Sequence record: MG383452
Source: Escherichia phage FEC14
Length of the DNA stretch: 64,000 bases
Strand: one strand, 5' to 3'
In this document: positions 2,463 through 19,481 of the stretch, piece by piece
How the letters are laid out: every line of letters starts with the position of its first letter
Numbering within the stretch: position 1 is the first letter of the stretch
Made by a program: the position numbers and the translations under genes
Notes under the pieces: generated by a model
The model's database searches: none
Seen by the model: the letters and a program-made list of their open reading frames with translations, nothing else
Told to the model about the DNA's origin: nothing

Positions 2463-4792
2463 TCCTTCTTAATCACTTCGGTCATGCCATTACGCAGACC
2501 ATAACGAATGTTATGTTGGAAATATTCTTGGAACTCCTGTTCACGCTGACTGATGACAAACAGATTGTTCCCACCAAATTTATGTTTCAGCATCTCAACC
2601 GATTCTTGTACGCCACGCTCGCTCATGTTCTCAAGGATTTCATCTAACACAAACAGGTTACATTGCACCGACGCCTTGAGGTTGGCCACGTCCCGTAGGG
2701 CTAATGTCACAGCCAGATTGAGTCGGCTGCGTTGTCCTGTAGACAGGGAGAATATGCTTTGCCCTTTACGACCTGCAGCGCTCATGGTGATTTCAAATGT
2801 ATCATCAACAGCAATATCCAAGAACATATTGAGTGCTTCAAGATACTCGTTTATTTTACTATTGAGGAAAGGCAAATACAGGCTGATAATTCGAGCCTTG
2901 GTCTGATCATCTTTTAGGAAGAACAGAAGATGGTTCAGGTCTTGCAATTTCTCATCCAACTCTACGCGCCGCGCATTCAGATCTTCCATTAATGCCGTGA
3001 TGCGAGCGATCTCTCCTTCCAGGGCTTCAGTTGGTGTCGGCTTAACCGCCAATTTACGCTCTAAATCGGCAATGGATGCCTCTAGAGGGGCACGGCGTGA
3101 TTTCAGGCTGGTGAGTTTATCAGCCGTGTCGTTGATACTCTTAGAGAGCTGCTCACGCGCTTGACGGATTGACGTCGTGATATCTTCGTAACGGGTGTCT
3201 ACGGCCTTGAGGACGTCGTTAATTTTGGACTGTTGTTCCCGCTGTAAAGATGTTTTCTCAACAGCAGCGACATCATAGAATCCTTGGATGTCGCGTTTTA
3301 ATGTAGCGATCGCCGATTCCGCTTCTCGGATTTCATTGCGCAAAGCATCCAGTTCTTTGTCAATAACCGAAATCTGAGAAGATAATTCTGAATCTCTGAC
3401 ATTGTAATTCTCAATCAGGGAATTCACTTCTTCTAGGGCTGTATCAACCTGAAGAATCTTGTCAGTCAGTTCACTGATTTGTGGATAATATTGACTTTCA
3501 ATGCGTGATTTGGTATCGTCCGACACTAATTGCGTACACGTAGGGCAAGTGCCCATATCGTGGAAACGTTTGATGGCAGATTCATGTCCTTCCATTTCTG
3601 TTACGAATTTGATACGGAAGTTCTCACCCTGCTGACGCCGCGCTAATGCTTTGTTCAGTTCATCCAGGTTAGCATTCCGTTGGCTGACCAGATCATTTTT
3701 ACGTTCCGCGACTACCGCCATTCTCTCCCGAATTTCTTGTAATGAACGTTCGCCATCAGACACCTCGATACGTTCATAGTCTTCAGCCTTGGTATCAGCA
3801 TCATCCTGAACTGCTTGGATTTTGGCCGCATACTCTTCATTGATGGAATCGATATCCACCTTCATTTCAGCGTTCAGGCGATTACGGACTTCTGATAATT
3901 CAGTTTCTAATTTAGAATCTTGGGCACGGAATTCCGTCAGTTCGTCTTGAGAAGCACCAATATCTGAATTCAAACTATTCAGACGTTCCTTCTCTTGGAC
4001 AAGGATATCAGCAGATTGTTGCTGGATCATCGCATTGGAATTATTGATCTGTTCCAACTGCGCTTGCTGGCCTTTTAAATTTACATCATGAAAGGCGTAA
4101 TCATTGGTGACCGTCGTGAGTTCATTCGTTACTGTCTTGATAGATGCTTTTACATCTTCATTCATCAGACTGAAGAACCCCAAATCCCAGATTGTCTCTA
4201 CCATAGCGCGACGGTCGGCAGTGTACATTTCCGTGAATGGGATGAACTTCTCTTTGCCCAGAACCAGGGAGTTCTCAAACATCTTCTGGTCCACGCCAAT
4301 CAGGTTCACAATATATTTGTTCATGTCGGCTTTGGCCGCATCATTCACGACCTTCTTCCACTCACCGTCTACCATCTGATAGACTTCTACGAAATCAGGT
4401 TTGATACCACGACGGACTTTCCATTCACTTCCTCGAGTGGAGAACTCAACTTCACCCACGCATTCCTTTTTGTTTTGGGAATTGACTAATCCGGCTTTCT
4501 TTTCTTTCTTGCTGTATGTGTCATTATACAGAACGAAGAACAGCAGCCAGACAAGCATGGTGGATTTACCAGCGCCATTGTCATCGGATGTAACCAAGGT
4601 TGCCGAATTGCGTTGGTAATCAATTTCCATGAATTCATTACCGATAGAACGGAAGTTTTTAGCGCGACCGCGATGGAAAGTCAGTTTGTGGGTAATTTCC
4701 CCACGAATTTCAAATGGTACTTCAACAGAAACAGGAGTGTCCGCTTCTTTCAACAGCGAACCAAATTTTGATAATAGGTCTACATTGTTCAT
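2459..4792 (-). CDS. 46: recombination endonuclease ATPase subunit gp46 (Rad50/SbcC-like)
   Basis: Walker A GAGKST near N-terminus, long central coiled-coil, C-terminal LFVLDEILE...NLFVISQREQEF matching T4 gp46 C-terminus (LILDEVFD...VFIISHKD); immediately downstream of the gp47 gene as in T4. Confidence 0.9.
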   Translation of the reverse strand: MNNVDLLSKFGSLLKEADTPVSVEVPFEIRGEITHKLTFHRGRAKNFRSIGNEFMEIDYQRNSATLVTSDDNGAGKSTMLVWLLFFVLYNDTYSKKEKKAGLVNSQNKKECVGEVEFSTRGSEWKVRRGIKPDFVEVYQMVDGEWKKVVNDAAKADMNKYIVNLIGVDQKMFENSLVLGKEKFIPFTEMYTADRRAMVETIWDLGFFSLMNEDVKASIKTVTNELTTVTNDYAFHDVNLKGQQAQLEQINNSNAMIQQQSADILVQEKERLNSLNSDIGASQDELTEFRAQDSKLETELSEVRNRLNAEMKVDIDSINEEYAAKIQAVQDDADTKAEDYERIEVSDGERSLQEIRERMAVVAERKNDLVSQRNANLDELNKALARRQQGENFRIKFVTEMEGHESAIKRFHDMGTCPTCTQLVSDDTKSRIESQYYPQISELTDKILQVDTALEEVNSLIENYNVRDSELSSQISVIDKELDALRNEIREAESAIATLKRDIQGFYDVAAVEKTSLQREQQSKINDVLKAVDTRYEDITTSIRQAREQLSKSINDTADKLTSLKSRRAPLEASIADLERKLAVKPTPTEALEGEIARITALMEDLNARRVELDEKLQDLNHLLFFLKDDQTKARIISLYLPFLNSKINEYLEALNMFLDIAVDDTFEITMSAAGRKGQSIFSLSTGQRSRLNLAVTLALRDVANLKASVQCNLFVLDEILENMSERGVQESVEMLKHKFGGNNLFVISQREQEFQEYFQHNIRYGLRNGMTEVIKKD

Positions 4793-4794
4793 TA

Positions 4795-5910
4795 TTATGC
4801 ATCCAATGTGTTCAAACGTTGTTGGGCAGCATTATAAAATTGTTCTGCAAGTTTGCAAACATTTTCAGGGCGCTGGATATTGTTGGCTGCGCGGATATCA
4901 TTTTTCAAGACTTCTACAGCATCAGTAGCCACCATCTCTTCAGTGACTTCTACCTTCTCGGAAGCAACAGTAATCGTCCGATCGATGAAGTTGTAATCGA
5001 TGCATTTACAGCGCTTCAATGCGTCACAGAACTTTTCATAATGCTTGGCATTGTCACGGTTCTGTACAATCACCTTAACGATTTGCCCTTCAATACCCAA
5101 AACATTGTTTAACCAATCGGGGTCGATCCAATTACCTTCAGTATCAGAAGACATTTGTGTGTAGTCGTATTCCACGAACCGGAACAACGTTTGTTGTTCG
5201 TTGTTGGGGATAAACAATTCCCCGCCATTCATGTCGTCTACATAGAATCCTCGGTTCGTCCCGTCTTTGTGGTCTTCCCAGGTAAGATGATAAGGAGTCC
5301 CAATATACTGAATGTTACCTTCCATCGAACGGGTATGGAAATGTCCGGTATCCACGCGCTCGAATTTCGAAAGGAGCGCCAAGTCGATCTGACCTTTATC
5401 ACATACAGAGGACTGGTACATTTTGAACCCTGCCAACTCCAGATGCGCAAAACAGTACTTGGCGTCTGTATCTTGTATCGCTTTAATGGACGCATCATAG
5501 TTCTCTTTGTTAATCCACGGCAGTAGGAGGGTCTTGACACCTTCAATCATTACTTCAGTTGGTTCGCTGTAATAATGATAAACATCCGGTGCCAATTCAT
5601 TAAGATAAGAAGGCCAGTTAATGCGATTGGACTCTTCTAACGTGATATCATGGTTTCCAACGATGCCATTCCATTTGATACCCGCCTTTCTCAGGGCTGG
5701 CGTTAATTCATCTTTCAACCAATCTTTATCGCGACCATACATGAATTTGCGAACATCAAACGTATCACCAAATTGCCACACTTCTTTAATATCGGCGTCA
5801 ACCAATTCTGGAATAAAATAATTGATGAGATAATTCTTTATGAATTCTCGAACGTAACGGGAACCATTACGGCTCCCGATATGTAAATCGCCAATTTTAG
5901 CAATCGCCAT
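4795..5910 (-). CDS. 47: recombination nuclease subunit gp47 (Mre11/SbcD-like phosphoesterase)
   Basis: Phosphoesterase motifs GDLHIG, GDTFDVRK, VGNHD, GHFH align with T4 gp47 (GDWHLG, GDIFDVRK, VGNHD, GHFH). Confidence 0.9.
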   Translation of the reverse strand: MAIAKIGDLHIGSRNGSRYVREFIKNYLINYFIPELVDADIKEVWQFGDTFDVRKFMYGRDKDWLKDELTPALRKAGIKWNGIVGNHDITLEESNRINWPSYLNELAPDVYHYYSEPTEVMIEGVKTLLLPWINKENYDASIKAIQDTDAKYCFAHLELAGFKMYQSSVCDKGQIDLALLSKFERVDTGHFHTRSMEGNIQYIGTPYHLTWEDHKDGTNRGFYVDDMNGGELFIPNNEQQTLFRFVEYDYTQMSSDTEGNWIDPDWLNNVLGIEGQIVKVIVQNRDNAKHYEKFCDALKRCKCIDYNFIDRTITVASEKVEVTEEMVATDAVEVLKNDIRAANNIQRPENVCKLAEQFYNAAQQRLNTLDA

Positions 5911-6703
5911 TATTTTGTTGCTCCCGTTCTAATGCTCGTTTCTTTGCTTCTTCCCAATCTGGTTCCATAGAACATATTTCGTCTTCCAGATTGAATTGAG
6001 TAGAGCCGAAGTCATAGTCTGAATTATCTTCGGCGTCGGCGGTAATGGTATTTTCACTCTTTGTGAGACATTGAAGTATACCGCGAGGAATTTTCTTATT
6101 CTTTTCCTCTTCTTTGATGGCGATTTGCTTTTGGCGTTCCTTTTCGCGCTGTGCTTCTTTCTTAGTTTCAAAATTTCCGATACGCTCACGGAAGTCCATT
6201 GTTATACCAGTGCTGTCTACGAATGTCTGTTGCTGGAAGTCTGGGTCATCTGATAATGCAGCGAAACCACCTGCTTCTTCAAATGAACGCAACTTGATAT
6301 AATTGTGTTCTTCTTCACTGGTGAGTTTCTTGGCGAATGAACGATCGGCGCACATCGTTACCCAAGAGAAGAAATTGATTTTTCCTTTCTTGCCGATATG
6401 ACTGACGTCAAATGTATGGAGGTAACGAAGAATGTTAACAACGGCCTCACTGACCATGTCTTCGCGGTATGGATAATCACGATAGTTGTAGCGCATACTC
6501 ATGTTCTTAATAATCATCTGAACATTCATGGCCACATAATTGGGGATTCTTGGTAGGGGTGTTCCTTCGGCCAAAGCCTTTTTGCGAGCCGGAATCCAAT
6601 CTCTCAATATTCCAACAACACGGTCATTATCTTCGTCTGTGAAATATTTGGTGACGTTATCACCCCTGTCTACAAAATTCATACCCATCGTGATAATCCT
6701 CAA
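5897..6703 (-). CDS. 55: late-transcription sigma factor gp55-like, with extended charged C-terminal tail
   Basis: Central region (YNYRDY...LHTFD...FAKKLTSEEE) parallels T4 gp55 (FNFSGY...LHNFD...QRIKKERKE); sits directly upstream of gp47 as in T4 (55, alpha-gt, 47, 46). Confidence 0.55.
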   Translation of the reverse strand: MRIITMGMNFVDRGDNVTKYFTDEDNDRVVGILRDWIPARKKALAEGTPLPRIPNYVAMNVQMIIKNMSMRYNYRDYPYREDMVSEAVVNILRYLHTFDVSHIGKKGKINFFSWVTMCADRSFAKKLTSEEEHNYIKLRSFEEAGGFAALSDDPDFQQQTFVDSTGITMDFRERIGNFETKKEAQREKERQKQIAIKEEEKNKKIPRGILQCLTKSENTITADAEDNSDYDFGSTQFNLEDEICSMEPDWEEAKKRALEREQQNNGDC

Positions 6704-14523: not shown

Positions 14524-14973
14524 TCAGAAACGGGTATCGCTGACCGTTCTGTATCGCACACCCTGAAACTGTTTAGCGAGTTTAACAAATTCCATCGCTG
14601 GCAAATCAACTTTGTAGACCTTCATGCGCTGTTTGCCGTCCATGTTCAACGCAGCGACAAATCGGTGAGACCCGTCAACAACGTAATTGTCAGAAGACAC
14701 CCAAACTCGACCCATGGGCTTCTTATTTCTGATCTGCTTCATAATCTTCCAGACCTTCATTTTATTGATTTCGTTCTGGGTAAGACGAAGCATTTTGATG
14801 GGCACTTGCGCAGCATCTATGGACACGCCGTTGTCTTCAAGATATTTGTGAAAATCTTCTTGTTTGTCGGCATCGATTTGCGGCATAGAAGAACGAGAAA
14901 GCCCGAGGTTCCCAACAGGAATCCTCAGGCCATTTATGATATTCATCCAGTCAATAAAGGATGTAAGGAACAT
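14524..14973 (-). CDS. hypothetical protein (149 aa)
   Basis: Minus-strand ORF. Confidence 0.45.
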   Translation of the reverse strand: MFLTSFIDWMNIINGLRIPVGNLGLSRSSMPQIDADKQEDFHKYLEDNGVSIDAAQVPIKMLRLTQNEINKMKVWKIMKQIRNKKPMGRVWVSSDNYVVDGSHRFVAALNMDGKQRMKVYKVDLPAMEFVKLAKQFQGVRYRTVSDTRF

Positions 14974-15341: not shown

Positions 15342-15848
15342 TTATAGGGTAACAAGTGATACGGTAAAAACCATCGTCCCATCTGTTGCCATTTTTCTTG
15401 AAACTGGGAAGACGCGAGGCTGACAGAATATCCATTCTTTCTCCATGGACGCCAAGTCCAGCATATCCATTTCTGATTCATCGCCTTTGTTCACAAATTT
15501 TTCTAGAGAACCAAAGACATTAAGCCCCTCTGGGAGTCCGTTTCGATGTTTATAACAAATGCGGGCAACAGCTTTGGTTCCATACGATTTAGAAAATTGT
15601 TTGGCCACATGCTTCAGTTCGCTGAAACTAAGACAAGAATCCCATGTCTGAAACATGTCTCCTCGTTCAAACATCATCTCCAAACGCGCAACGTCCTCTT
15701 TAGGCAACCCGCGATAAAGTGTGGTCATCTGCGGTTCGCGTAATTCTTGCACCAGACCACGGATGGCAGGGGAAACAGTGCCAGGGCGCATGATGTGGGA
15801 CTTATCATGGACGAGGTAAAATAAATCTTGAATTTGTTGATCGGTCAT
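15342..15848 (-). CDS. hypothetical protein (168 aa), MTDQ N-terminus
   Basis: Minus-strand ORF with the same upstream cassette as 15011..15289. Confidence 0.5.
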   Translation of the reverse strand: MTDQQIQDLFYLVHDKSHIMRPGTVSPAIRGLVQELREPQMTTLYRGLPKEDVARLEMMFERGDMFQTWDSCLSFSELKHVAKQFSKSYGTKAVARICYKHRNGLPEGLNVFGSLEKFVNKGDESEMDMLDLASMEKEWIFCQPRVFPVSRKMATDGTMVFTVSLVTL

Positions 15849-15907: not shown

Positions 15908-16147
15908 TTAACTGATGTGCTTCAGAAGAGCGAAGAGGATCGCGGCCTTGGCTTTCACCTTTCCGACGACGCCTGTTTCGACGTCGACTTCTTCGGCAAC
16001 CCAATCTTTTCCCTTCTTGCTGATGATAACATCGCGGCGCTGGGCATATACTTCTTTGGTCGCATACACACGACGGAACCCTTTAGCGCGGAGCAAGCCC
16101 CAATTACGATCAATCTCCACTGAAGTTTCTACCATTTTGTTCTTCAT
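15908..16147 (-). CDS. hypothetical protein (79 aa)
   Basis: Minus-strand ORF. Confidence 0.4.
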   Translation of the reverse strand: MKNKMVETSVEIDRNWGLLRAKGFRRVYATKEVYAQRRDVIISKKGKDWVAEEVDVETGVVGKVKAKAAILFALLKHIS

Positions 16148-16237
16148 GATATAATCTTACCTTTCAACCTGGTGAACCCATCGTTCGCCAGTTATTGAAT
16201 AATACGCATTTGCCTTATAGAAGTAAACCCCTAAAAG

Positions 16238-16263
16238 TAAAAATCCCCAACGTTTGTTGGGGA
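16238..16263 (-). terminator. hairpin ATCCCCAAC-loop-GTTGGGGAT followed by TTTTTACTTTT on the minus strand
   Basis: Strong inverted repeat plus U-run directly 3' of the ACP-like gene. Confidence 0.55.
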
Positions 16264-16270
16264 TCTTCAG

Positions 16271-16603
16271 TTACTTGCGCAGGGCAACCACGTATTCGGC
16301 AAGTTCACCCATGGTCGGGTCGTCGCCTTTACCGCCCAGCCAGCCATCAGAGATCTCGACATTGAACTCTTCTTCTAGTTCCATGACGATTTCGATGGCA
16401 TCAAGATCGTCGCCGCCGAGGTCTTTCTTGGTGCGGAGGCCAGCCAGTTTATCCAGGGCGTCATTCATAATCACTTCCGCGTCGACGATGCCTTTGATGC
16501 TGCTCTTGTCTTCGTCACTGACTTCCAGGTTCAGATTGTCAGTGGCGTACTGAGCCAGGTGACGCATTACTTCAACATAAGTTGGTTTGTTTGACATAAG
16601 CAT
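16271..16603 (-). CDS. acyl-carrier-protein-like protein with Asp in place of the phosphopantetheine-attachment Ser
   Basis: DLGGDDLDAIEIVMELEEEFNVEISD aligns with E. coli ACP [26 protein letters not shown]; the conserved Ser is Asp here. Confidence 0.6.
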   Translation of the reverse strand: MLMSNKPTYVEVMRHLAQYATDNLNLEVSDEDKSSIKGIVDAEVIMNDALDKLAGLRTKKDLGGDDLDAIEIVMELEEEFNVEISDGWLGGKGDDPTMGELAEYVVALRK

Positions 16604-16606
16604 ATC

Positions 16607-16626
16607 TCAAAATGAAGGCGGGTTTC
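16607..16626 (-). terminator. hairpin GGCGGG-loop-CCCGCC 3' of the vWA gene
   Basis: Inverted repeat between the vWA stop and the ACP-like start. Confidence 0.4.
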
Positions 16627-16640
16627 CCCGCCAGTTGAAT

Positions 16641-18893
16641 TTAGATTTTGACTTCTTTTTCAGCCAGTTCGGCAGTGACAGTGTATTTCACCCCATCAAC
16701 TTCCACATCCATAGTGGATTCTTCCAAATCCAGGTCGGTAAACCAACCATGGCCTGCAACAATCCCATAAACTACCTTGGACAGCGTTTTGTTCAGAGAT
16801 CGAACTTCGTTGATAGCTGCTTTTGCTGCATCACCAATCCAACTTTCGATCAGCTTTTTCTGAGTCTCTTCCGGTACGCTGGTGATCATCGGCGATTTAA
16901 CAAACGCATTGTATTCGGCCAGGGCATTAGCGATCAGCTGATCAGCGACATTCAGTTTTTTACCGTCCGTCTGTTTTTTGATAACAGACGCGATGCTCGG
17001 CAGTGAAGATGCGCCTTTGATTTTCACATTCAATTCACGACTCATATAGACATCGGTTGATTCTACAGAAGAAGTCTTCGGTGAAAATCCATAGTCGCGA
17101 ATGCCGTTTGCTGACAGGAAATCAGCCGCTTCTTTGCCATATTTTGAAGCCAGACCAGTAGCGTTGCCTTTGCCAACCAGTTCATCACGGTAGAATTTCA
17201 GAACTTTTTGCTTTGCCTTCAATGCTTCACGGCGCACATTGTCTGCAAAGAATTCAGCAGCACTGATATTCTTTGTCATGGCGCGGTTAACCATTGGGAC
17301 ACTTTCCAGATTTACAATGAAGACTTCCGGCCCACCAAACACATGAACACCCATGGCAGTCAAATCCTGTGCCACCTTAGCCCGAATAATCGGAGAATCT
17401 GCAGTGATAGGCATTGTTTTCAGGTTGATGATACCATCCTTGACAATGGTGTAATTGCGATAACGCCAGGTTCCCAGCTCTTCAGGAAGTTCATATTTCT
17501 TCTGTACAAACTCAGGCACAACAACCGTTCCGTGTTGAACTGTCTGCACACTGATGTTAGGACGTTCTGAATTGTAGACCAAATTGCTGATCGGGACAAT
17601 CCCTTTATCATCTGCTGGATTGAATTCGGGGGTCCAATCTTCGTGCTCGGCCAGTTTGAGCGCCAGGGCTTTACGCTCTTCTTTAGAAGTCGCATTCGCA
17701 ATCTCTTCGGCCAACTTGTCTTCGGTGTCATCAACTTTCTGTACAGTACCGCGCCCAATGCTCTTGTAAGAGAATAGCGGATGCTTAGTGACAATAGAGA
17801 CATCTGCTTCAGCCAGATACGTCAGAACATCAACAATGGTGGTGGCGTCTTCAGCCGGAACCATATTATAATCGATGCCATCAACTCCTCGCAGAGATTC
17901 GTCTACGATAGCCTGGGTCAGATCGACTTTGATGTTGGAATAGTCCTGCTTGGTGAAACAGTTGCTGTATTGTTTGATGAAGCGGACGTCACCCGTTTTC
18001 TTCAGCGCAGCCCAAACCAAATCTGCGTCCATGGTATACACGCCGTAAAATGCCAGCACGTATGCCGCTTGGATGTCTGCCAGATTATCCAGCTGGTCGA
18101 TCATGTTGGGGTTTACAACCCACAGCTGAGAAACGCTTTCAGGGATGCTGACGTGGCCAATAGGGTGCTCTTCATCAGGATGCACAGCTAAAACAGTCGC
18201 CACGCCATTTTCAACATAAATGGCATGGGTGTAAACCAGGGGAACATCGACCACCACTTTCGGTGAAGAAGTTTTTAGCACGTTTTCCAATTCGGTCTGA
18301 TATTCATTCTGGCCTTCGGCGAATACGTGGGTCGCACCAGAACGTTCTGCCATTAGCGCCAGCAGTTCGCGATTACAATACCAACCGTATTCGATGAAGG
18401 TAATGTTATCAAACGCTTTGGGCAGTACTTCAGCGGCATCCAGGATTTCATTAGAACGCCAGCAGTTGTCATATCCGTCAGTCATGAATGCCAGGTTATT
18501 AACATAACCAGGTTTATTCAGGCTAATGGCAGTTTCCGCAGCCAATTTCAGCGGCTCAACAAAACCAGTACAACCAGAAGGCTTCAGGAAACGGTCAATT
18601 AGATTATTGATCTCAGTGAGATCAGTTGCACTGTTAATCTGACGTCCGGCAAATACCGTTCCGAAATCACCGCGAGATGAAAAGTAAAGGATGCTCACAG
18701 TATCTTCCGGTTTCACCAGGGAAGGCAGGTTCTCCTTCAGATGCTTACGGACTTCTGGAAGTGAACGATACATGGAACCGGAGATATCCACAACGATTAC
18801 ATGGTTAGACGGCGCGACGGTCGCAACCGCATTCTTAAATGTTAATGATTCAATCATCGTTATTACCTTCTTTAGTGGTATGGACGGCTTCAC
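16641..18893 (-). CDS. von Willebrand factor A (vWA) domain protein (about 740 aa)
   Basis: N-terminal MIDAS-type motif VIVVDISGSM plus downstream Thr/Asp positions typical of vWA; likely true start at MIESL (about 18857), coupled to an upstream small ORF. Confidence 0.65.
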   Translation of the reverse strand: MKPSIPLKKVITMIESLTFKNAVATVAPSNHVIVVDISGSMYRSLPEVRKHLKENLPSLVKPEDTVSILYFSSRGDFGTVFAGRQINSATDLTEINNLIDRFLKPSGCTGFVEPLKLAAETAISLNKPGYVNNLAFMTDGYDNCWRSNEILDAAEVLPKAFDNITFIEYGWYCNRELLALMAERSGATHVFAEGQNEYQTELENVLKTSSPKVVVDVPLVYTHAIYVENGVATVLAVHPDEEHPIGHVSIPESVSQLWVVNPNMIDQLDNLADIQAAYVLAFYGVYTMDADLVWAALKKTGDVRFIKQYSNCFTKQDYSNIKVDLTQAIVDESLRGVDGIDYNMVPAEDATTIVDVLTYLAEADVSIVTKHPLFSYKSIGRGTVQKVDDTEDKLAEEIANATSKEERKALALKLAEHEDWTPEFNPADDKGIVPISNLVYNSERPNISVQTVQHGTVVVPEFVQKKYELPEELGTWRYRNYTIVKDGIINLKTMPITADSPIIRAKVAQDLTAMGVHVFGGPEVFIVNLESVPMVNRAMTKNISAAEFFADNVRREALKAKQKVLKFYRDELVGKGNATGLASKYGKEAADFLSANGIRDYGFSPKTSSVESTDVYMSRELNVKIKGASSLPSIASVIKKQTDGKKLNVADQLIANALAEYNAFVKSPMITSVPEETQKKLIESWIGDAAKAAINEVRSLNKTLSKVVYGIVAGHGWFTDLDLEESTMDVEVDGVKYTVTAELAEKEVKI

Positions 18894-19021: not shown

Positions 19022-19381
19022 TCAATTCCCTTTCACTTCCATGACACCAGAAATATTCTTCAGGGCTTCACGGACTTCCGACGCCTTATCTTTCTTTACA
19101 ATCACAACAATGAAAGAAAAGTTCTTTTTCTTACGCCAATTCTTGAAATGAGTGACCAACTGGATATCTTTCTCTTCAGCACCACTTTCTCCAGCTACAG
19201 GGATATAAACTGTGCCTGACTCAATTACGACATCAGCATCGTCTGGAATATTTTCATCGAGTTCTTCACGGTATTCTCCATTAACTTTGACGCAATGATC
19301 ATCGTGCCAAGCACCCTTTTCCCAATATTCGTCATCGTTATAGTAGGCGTTGAATTCAACACCTTTCATTTTTACGGACAT
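19022..19381 (-). CDS. hypothetical acidic protein (119 aa)
   Basis: Minus-strand ORF. Confidence 0.45.
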   Translation of the reverse strand: MSVKMKGVEFNAYYNDDEYWEKGAWHDDHCVKVNGEYREELDENIPDDADVVIESGTVYIPVAGESGAEEKDIQLVTHFKNWRKKKNFSFIVVIVKKDKASEVREALKNISGVMEVKGN

Positions 19382-19481
19382 GATTTCCTCGCTTTACAAT
19401 TGGACCATTATACCTTGGCTTGTTAATTGAAACGCCCAGCAATTTGCCGGACGTTATTGATTTTGAAAGACTTTTGAAGAA

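Follow-up and report, generated by a model that had tools for sequence, protein, structure and literature searches.

The acyl carrier protein (ACP) of the bacterial type II fatty-acid synthase, AcpP, is a helical bundle in which Ser36 accepts 4'-phosphopantetheine. The acidic residues of helix II form the surface by which ACPs dock on basic patches of AcpS, the Fab enzymes, LpxA, and other partners. Phages also encode small ACP-fold proteins that contain the serine, such as those of PHROG 5934 (phiCbK and cyanophage-type AcpP). AcpP can dock and act without its cofactor as well: apo-ACP inhibits glycerol-3-phosphate acyltransferase (PlsB) more than holo-ACP does and arrests growth (review PMC3896788), and apo-AcpP stimulates the ATPase of MukB as well as holo-AcpP does (PMC8602292).

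The stretch of DNA analyzed here, which we call the window, comprises 64,000 nucleotides of Escherichia phage FEC14 (MG383452). It encodes a protein that resembles AcpP in its helical-bundle fold, in a helix II that is 63% identical over 27 residues, in a similar acidity, and in the docking residues D35, D38, E41, E47, E48, and D56 (AcpP numbering), all of which are kept. Unlike AcpP, the phage protein has Asp or, among its relatives, Glu at the position of Ser36, carries a 23-residue N-terminal helix and a W..G..DDPT insertion, and falls far under the NCBIfam cut-offs for AcpP. It is also phage-encoded, and the annotation of the CBA120 segments examined lists neither a cognate synthase nor acyl enzymes. 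The Ser-containing phage ACPs, which came up as secondary PHROG and BFVD matches, differ from it in keeping GADSLD, in having no N-terminal extension, and in not lying beside a VWA gene. Apo-ACP may serve as a functional analogy for the phage protein; it is, however, the host's own AcpP in a transient state, whereas the phage protein would be dedicated and permanently unloadable, with extra elements and putative partners.

Many phage records name the gene "acyl carrier protein." A search of the literature in full text yielded no paper on the missing serine or on the function of the gene, the mentions being annotation tables and one proteomics detection.

A conserved and expressed gene of Ackermannviridae phages

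With Salmonella phage KE28, the source region shares 99% identity over 4.5 kb; with SS9, PhaxI, and CBA120, it shares 97-99%. These are Kuttervirus phages of the family Ackermannviridae, and the gene is that of a ViI/CBA120-type phage. With the upstream ATG at 16603, the open reading frame on the (-) strand would span 16271..16603, which adds Met-Leu to the protein. The second ATG, at 16597, is the more likely start on comparison with homologs, since these begin with MS(N/S)KPTY behind a GGGAG Shine-Dalgarno sequence and the RefSeq annotation of the equivalent gene of CBA120, orf142, uses the equivalent Met. The features discussed below are collected in Table 1.

Table 1. Positions in the window of the ACP-like gene, its parts, and the elements around it
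Feature	Position	Strand	Description
VWA/MIDAS protein	16641..18857	(-)	738 aa; upstream neighbor and constant genomic partner; PHROG 2426; CBA120 orf143
GC-rich hairpin and T-run	16607..16632	(-)	GGCGGGGAAACCCGCC TTCATTTTGA; between VWA stop and ACP-like start; terminator-like
ACP-like CDS	16271..16597	(-)	108 aa plus stop; based on ORF list, Pfam, PHROG, tblastn, and start choice from homologs and Shine-Dalgarno sequence
N-terminal extension	16529..16597	(-)	residues 1-23 (MSNKPTYVEVMRHLAQYATDNLN); not in ordinary ACPs; predicted helix 7-21
Allelic cassette versus CBA120	16280..16573	(-)	ORF interior; 7-26 of 30 nt identical per window of 30 (~25-85%)
Helix II (recognition helix)	16364..16423	(-)	residues 59-78, DLGGDDLDAIEIVMELEEEF; gap-free alignment to AcpP residues 31-57; predicted helix 64-78
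Asp64 codon (GAT)	16406..16408	(-)	aligned with Ser36 of AcpP, the phosphopantetheine acceptor
Insertion before helix IV	16298..16342	(-)	residues 86-100, W86-LGGKG-DDPT; insertion relative to E. coli AcpP
Intrinsic terminator after ACP-like gene	16233..16266	(-)	GAUCCCCAAC-AAAC-GUUGGGGAUUUUUACUUUU; 11-bp stem and U-tract

The profile of PHROG 4154 ("acyl carrier protein") was matched over its full length (E = 2.6e-57), with residues 3-110 aligned to positions 1-108 of 108, and the Pfam model PP-binding (PF00550) scored 31 bits against a gathering cut-off of 20.8. The NCBIfam model acyl_carrier (TIGR00517) gave 35.3 bits where 70.45 are required, and the score stayed under the cut-off for every other AcpP model too. 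By tblastn, the family was found in 272 phage records, all of them Ackermannviridae-like and spread over at least 6 genera, with hosts among Salmonella, Klebsiella, Escherichia, Dickeya, Shigella, Enterobacter, Serratia, and Yersinia. Metagenomic relatives were also found, and at least 14 phage records encode a protein that is at least 99% identical to the one studied here. The protein has a pI of 4.2, with 25 Asp/Glu in 108 residues; the pI of E. coli AcpP is 4.05.

In CsCl-purified particles of Sajous1, a Vi01-like phage, the protein was detected by 1 spectrum (PMC10892097). This detection shows expression and most likely reflects carry-over rather than a virion component. The ORF is a genuine gene that Ackermannviridae phages express and conserve.

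The ACP fold and the site of the acceptor serine

An AlphaFold2 model built from 21 family sequences (pLDDT 74, pTM 0.68, hence of moderate confidence) has helices at residues 7-21, 28-39, 45-52, 64-78, 84-89, and 96-106. A Foldseek search of the PDB with this model returned only ACPs, at TM 0.70-0.75 when normalized to the ACP target, and an independent BFVD model of the ViI homolog superposes on it at TM 0.86-0.88. As modeled, the protein is an ACP helical bundle plus two family-specific additions. Within the first of these, the N-terminal extension, K4, Y7, and V10 are conserved, and the alignment with bacterial ACPs begins only at about residue 28. Within the second, the insertion before helix IV, residues W86, G88, D92, D93, and P94 are nearly invariant.

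From the sequence of the gene, the initial annotation had proposed that helix II is almost intact and that the serine modified in ACPs is replaced by Asp. Both proposals were borne out. BLASTP against E. coli AcpP gave 17/27 identities without gaps (pairwise E = 7e-10), confirmed DLGGDDLDAIEIVMELEEEF at residues 59-78 as the counterpart of helix II, and set Asp64 opposite Ser36. A phmmer search of all PDB chains found acyl carrier proteins only, and GGDDLD of the phage protein lay gap-free on GADSLD of the B. subtilis and P. falciparum ACPs. Alignments with relatives place D or E at the same site. Among 21 representatives that span the family, 9 have D and 12 have E at the Ser36 position, which is thus always acidic; the same holds for 21 close relatives, for 10 distant full-length relatives (32-49% identity), and for the homolog of Erwinia phage Bue1.

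Two other accounts of the aspartate were considered and ruled out. A sequencing error or a pseudogene is contradicted by the codon itself, by the occurrence of identical sequences in many independent genomes, and by the family-wide nature of the trait: GAT is at least 2 substitutions away from any of the Ser codons (AGY/TCN), and therefore a single-base error cannot explain Asp64. A different serine as the attachment site is equally excluded, as none of the five serines is conserved. More generally, no conserved alternative Ser or Cys was found in the ACP-like family, and the protein of the window contains no cysteine. Of the hydroxyl residues, only T95 is conserved, and in the alignment it falls on the Thr that caps the N-terminus of helix IV in ordinary ACPs.

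Because the acceptor serine is Asp or Glu throughout the family and no other serine is conserved, the sequences argue that the protein would not be loaded with phosphopantetheine. The earlier claim that AcpS cannot load it is well supported in this respect, and so is the conclusion that a protein unable to accept 4'-phosphopantetheine would not be the carrier named in the databases. In CBA120 at 1-50 kb and 65-142 kb, the annotation includes neither a phosphopantetheinyl transferase nor any acyl-chain or fatty-acid enzyme.

A speculative alternative is that the protein is still a carrier, with unconventional chemistry in which the carboxylate at the site bears a cargo or is modified, for instance by ADP-ribosylation. 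The C-terminal Glu of LysW carries amino acids, the site in this family is strictly D or E and never A, N, or G, and a fragment of an Alt-like ADP-ribosyltransferase is encoded ~500 bp downstream. We nevertheless consider this very improbable. Neither in the neighborhood nor in the examined parts of CBA120 is an ATP-grasp ligase or another enzyme for loading annotated. The side chains of D and E are not of the same length, an unusual state for an attachment site that must be catalytically precise, and we know of no precedent for carboxylate attachment in an ACP fold. The acidic preference may also simply reflect the stability of the helix N-terminus, near which Asp and Glu are favored, rather than mimicry.

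Conservation, computed on the same 21 representatives of the whole ACP-like family, is concentrated around helix II. The equivalents of AcpP D35, L37, V40, E41, and E47 are invariant (100%), those of D38, M44, I54, and D56 are conserved at 95%, and mean conservation is 0.69 at residues 55-86 versus 0.35 at residues 24-54. That docking residues are retained in a protein that is not a carrier speaks most strongly for ACP-like docking, with the caveat that helix II conservation is not specific to docking, as the same residues also stabilize the fold. In addition, the conserved N-terminal helix and the W-x-G..DDPT insertion could alter or block canonical docking.

A recent capture of the host acpP was also considered and is not supported. 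The best matches are non-enterobacterial ACPs, namely those of Bacillus and Plasmodium, and E. coli AcpP aligns over helix II only. The sequences thus give no sign of such a capture, nor of mimicry specific to the host.

Genomic context and cassette-like evolution

The ACP-like gene is the last of a run of early/middle-type genes on the (-) strand. In every genome that has it, the gene follows the VWA gene on the same strand at a distance of 38-52 nt, and this adjacency holds in divergent genomes too (CRW-SP2, L083, L084/85, Bue1, and L097). In Erwinia phage vB_EamM-Bue1 (L087:4747-5106), and also in phiEa2809, the ACP-like ORF that directly follows the VWA gene has no deposited feature; its motif in Bue1, HFAMDELDYIEFIMELEDD, has Glu at the Ser site.

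The model of the VWA protein (pLDDT 86) shows an N-terminal VWA domain and a beta-sandwich resembling those of ITIH, ArnB, and Sec23-24. The remaining ~450 residues gave no informative structural match, and the protein has no sequence relative in the PDB. Its MIDAS residues (DxSxS, T, and D) do not vary among 43 homologs. With 502 phage records versus 272 for the ACP-like family, the VWA family spans the Ackermannviridae, the T4-like Slopekvirus and Karamvirus, and Shewanella phage Thanatos, and it extends remotely to PBS1 and Rhizobium phages. Beside the VWA genes of KP27, Thanatos-2, and the Aeromonas Tedavirus phiA8-29, all with intact MIDAS, no ACP-like ORF was found. At one locus (L018:3703-5956), the VWA gene is apparently split into overlapping ORFs at 3703-5130 and 5081-5956, which suggests a frameshift or an assembly error.

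Such a constant partner points to a phage protein, instead of host docking, as the target of the ACP-like protein. The main rival explanation accordingly makes the ACP-like protein an adaptor or ligand for its neighbor, the VWA protein; its Asp or Glu, exposed at the N-terminus of helix II, would complete the coordination of the MIDAS metal, and the pair would act on a further target. Acidic ligand residues complete MIDAS coordination in this way for integrin I-domains and for midasin. The strict same-strand adjacency at 38-52 nt, which persists in very divergent genomes, would fit this explanation, as would the invariance of the MIDAS residues, the restriction of the site to D or E, and the detection of both proteins at the same trace level in Sajous1, where the VWA protein likewise gave 1 spectrum (PMC10892097). 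Several observations nonetheless make it unlikely, if worth serious attention. The genomes are broadly syntenic, so that adjacency may simply be inherited, and the VWA protein occurs with an intact MIDAS and no adjoining ACP-like gene in the three phages named above, in keeping with the larger number of VWA records. The ACP-like alleles swap independently of their neighbor (the VWA proteins being 99% identical where the ACP-like proteins are 69% identical), a conserved terminator-like hairpin lies between the two genes, and other ACP look-alikes with an acidic site have no VWA neighbor at all; these three points, like the VWA genes that occur alone, speak against an obligate pair.

That hairpin, at the VWA-ACP junction, is present in all Ackermann-like loci, with compensatory changes in its stems (GCCGGGG..CCCGGC, GGGGGC..GCCCCC, and GGCCGGGG..CCCGGCC). 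It could be an attenuator, a stabilizer of the mRNA 3'-end, or a processing site. On the other side of the gene, the strong terminator of its own that the initial annotation had assigned to it proved real: its minimum free energy is -26.9 kcal/mol (z = -4.98, with 0 of 200 shuffles folding as well), and it is conserved in relatives (L002-L010, L017, and L082-L084). With hairpins on both sides, the ACP-like gene is bracketed by two terminator-like elements. A scan for promoters of the sigma-70-like type revealed no convincing candidate directly upstream of the gene. One such promoter (TTTACT-17-TATTAT, 16199-16227, (-) strand) was seen just past the ACP-like terminator, in a conserved TAGGGGTTTACTTC... 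block, and presumably drives the next gene, at 15908..16147.

The ACP-like protein changes much faster than the proteins encoded around it, being 39-42% identical where its neighbors are 66-86% identical. Compared with CRW-SP2 (L082), the ACP-like protein is 39% identical, the VWA protein 83%, the orf141-like protein 77%, and the product of a 149-aa ORF (14524..14973) 83%; the corresponding values are 39%, 77%, 71%, and 77% for L083, and 69%, 99%, 89%, and 100% for a CBA120-type genome (L008). Relative to CBA120 (L001), the flanks at 16100-16279 and 16574-16760 are 100% identical. The interior of the ORF is a clean allelic cassette swap, with its junctions in the conserved N- and C-terminal codons. 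The FEC14 allele is Agtrevirus-like, with 92% identity to EspM4VN and 89% to SKML-39, and CBA120 and ViI carry another allele of 103-105 aa that is 64% identical. Such fast, modular change around an invariant motif is what would be expected of a protein at the phage-host interface. Elsewhere in the window, a 119-aa ORF (19022..19381, (-) strand; PHROG 4254) has no counterpart in CBA120: in the alignment, position 19030 is followed directly by 19384, an indel of 19031-19383 between genomes that are otherwise 97% identical.

Rapid divergence relative to its neighbors could also mean that a phage ACP gene has lost its function here and is decaying or persists as a neutral relic, and the absence of the gene from some Ackermannviridae (Tedavirus) and from T4-like phages that have the VWA gene would agree with this. 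Decay is scarcely credible, however, for an ORF that is intact in 272 records and at least 6 genera, keeps invariant motifs at ~32-40% overall identity, has its own conserved ribosome-binding site and terminator, yields a detected protein, and shows no frameshifted copies among the loci examined.

Superinfection-exclusion genes and the fragment of the Alt-like ADP-ribosyltransferase lie near the ACP-like gene. The 168-aa ORF at 15342-15848 on the (-) strand, annotated "RNA polymerase ADP-ribosylase," matches only the C-terminal positions 1270-1425 of the 1480-position profile PHROG 832 and is highly variable (24-98% identity) or absent in relatives.

A location of this kind, among small early/middle genes, is one of the features by which the protein might be taken for a generic acidic decoy, a mimic of nucleic acid or protein with an anti-defense role that binds a host defense or DNA-binding protein outside ACP biology. 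Its low pI and its many Asp and Glu residues would fit, and fast divergence combined with cassette swapping is typical of counter-defense genes. Yet no known defense or anti-defense family was matched: the only PADLOC hit of the ACP-like protein was PDC-M32A (14.1 bits, E = 0.004), and the VWA protein had no match to PADLOC models. The conserved residues, moreover, coincide exactly with those by which ACPs dock and do not simply make up an acidic surface, and true ACPs are equally acidic. We therefore regard the generic decoy as improbable.

ACP look-alikes without the serine and a proposed mode of action

A profile search of 1.84 billion representatives gave 952 matches, among which many small ACP-like proteins with GAD[DE]LD appeared besides ACPs with GADSLD. 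As the search profile itself favors D/E, the frequencies are biased, while independent occurrences are not. When ACP cores were clustered by average linkage with the site masked, the D/E-type proteins scattered over many clusters, and several had Ser-bearing nearest relatives; by this criterion, the change from Ser to Asp or Glu arose repeatedly. The GADSLD motif is kept at ~41 of the 61 viral loci outside the Ackermann group. Three others (L043, L054, and L077) have Glu or Asp at the site and no VWA neighbor, and the same is true of P0049, a Glu-type protein whose gene shares a phage-like early region with those of ThyX and an HNH endonuclease. The acidic look-alikes in unrelated phage contigs without a VWA neighbor count in favor of docking mimicry.

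Two further groups have the ACP fold signature with the acceptor serine replaced, so that loss of the carrier function recurs, but they belong to other sequence clusters and other contexts and have no N-terminal extension of the Ackermann type. The first is an Ala-type clade (DLKGDALD) of 79-aa phage proteins (L023, L026-L032, L034, L035, L037, L040, L050, and L051; e.g., L026:4361-4600), whose genes, in uncultured myoviruses, are flanked by a MazG-like gene on one side and by baseplate/tail genes on the other. The second is a bacterial group (P0179-P0207) with DLGADELD, in which Ser is replaced by Glu and which combines an N-terminal signal peptide with a lipobox-like Cys; one member (L090:5001-5483) is encoded beside ArgJ on a 1.17-Mb bacterial contig. 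To judge from these signals, the bacterial proteins would reach, by export, a compartment that lacks AcpS and CoA, where they could not be carriers.

Taken together with the retained docking surface, the Ackermannviridae protein is in all likelihood a non-carrier that acts by docking. A specific form of this proposal makes it a permanently unloaded mimic of ACP, occupying the ACP-binding sites of host proteins. In this mechanism, the ACP helical bundle and the acidic helix II would be kept for the same contacts that true ACPs make with basic patches of partner enzymes. Asp or Glu in place of Ser would leave the protein without cofactor and acyl groups, so that it would act purely by protein-protein docking. 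The phage would make it during infection, and by filling these sites it would disturb the lipid or envelope metabolism of the host or some other process that depends on ACP. AcpS, PlsB, the Lpx acyltransferases, the Fab enzymes, MukB, and IscS are candidate host targets. The full statement is plausible rather than probable: we infer that the protein binds ACP-binding sites at all, that its targets belong to the host, and that the phage benefits.

The initial annotation had likewise suggested a decoy or binding mimic of host ACP partners. The conserved docking residues, the fast divergence elsewhere in the protein, and the activity of apo-ACP (PMC3896788, PMC8602292) speak for that suggestion; against it, similarity is not highest to enterobacterial AcpP.

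The most general version, which is tentative and on balance doubtful, is that Ackermannviridae and, independently, other phage lineages use dedicated, unloadable ACP mimics as host-takeover factors. With Asp or Glu in place of the serine that is linked by a phosphodiester, such proteins would jam or hijack the ACP-docking sites of targets such as AcpS, PlsB, the Lpx acyltransferases, and MukB.

On present evidence, the label "acyl carrier protein" should read "ACP-fold protein, non-carrier." On several hundred phage records, this label implies an auxiliary role in lipid metabolism, which the sequence rules out. New here are the invariant docking residues in a fast-evolving protein, the cassette swap, the link with the VWA gene, the existence of VWA family members that lack an ACP-like neighbor, the two hairpins, and the recurrence of look-alikes with Ser changed to an acidic residue. 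The last of these, seen in phages and in the predicted exported bacterial proteins, suggests a broader and unrecognized class of non-carrier ACP-fold proteins. Kuttervirus phages of the CBA120 and ViI-like type are widely used candidates for biocontrol and therapy against Salmonella and E. coli O157, so that the function of a host-directed gene matters in practice. If the protein is an ACP mimic, ACP-docking sites would be a target of phage takeover, and the protein would offer a natural scaffold for inhibitors of enzymes that depend on ACP, which are targets for antibacterial drugs. If the host-takeover reading is true, these phages would encode a new class of effector that mimics the most connected small protein of bacterial metabolism.
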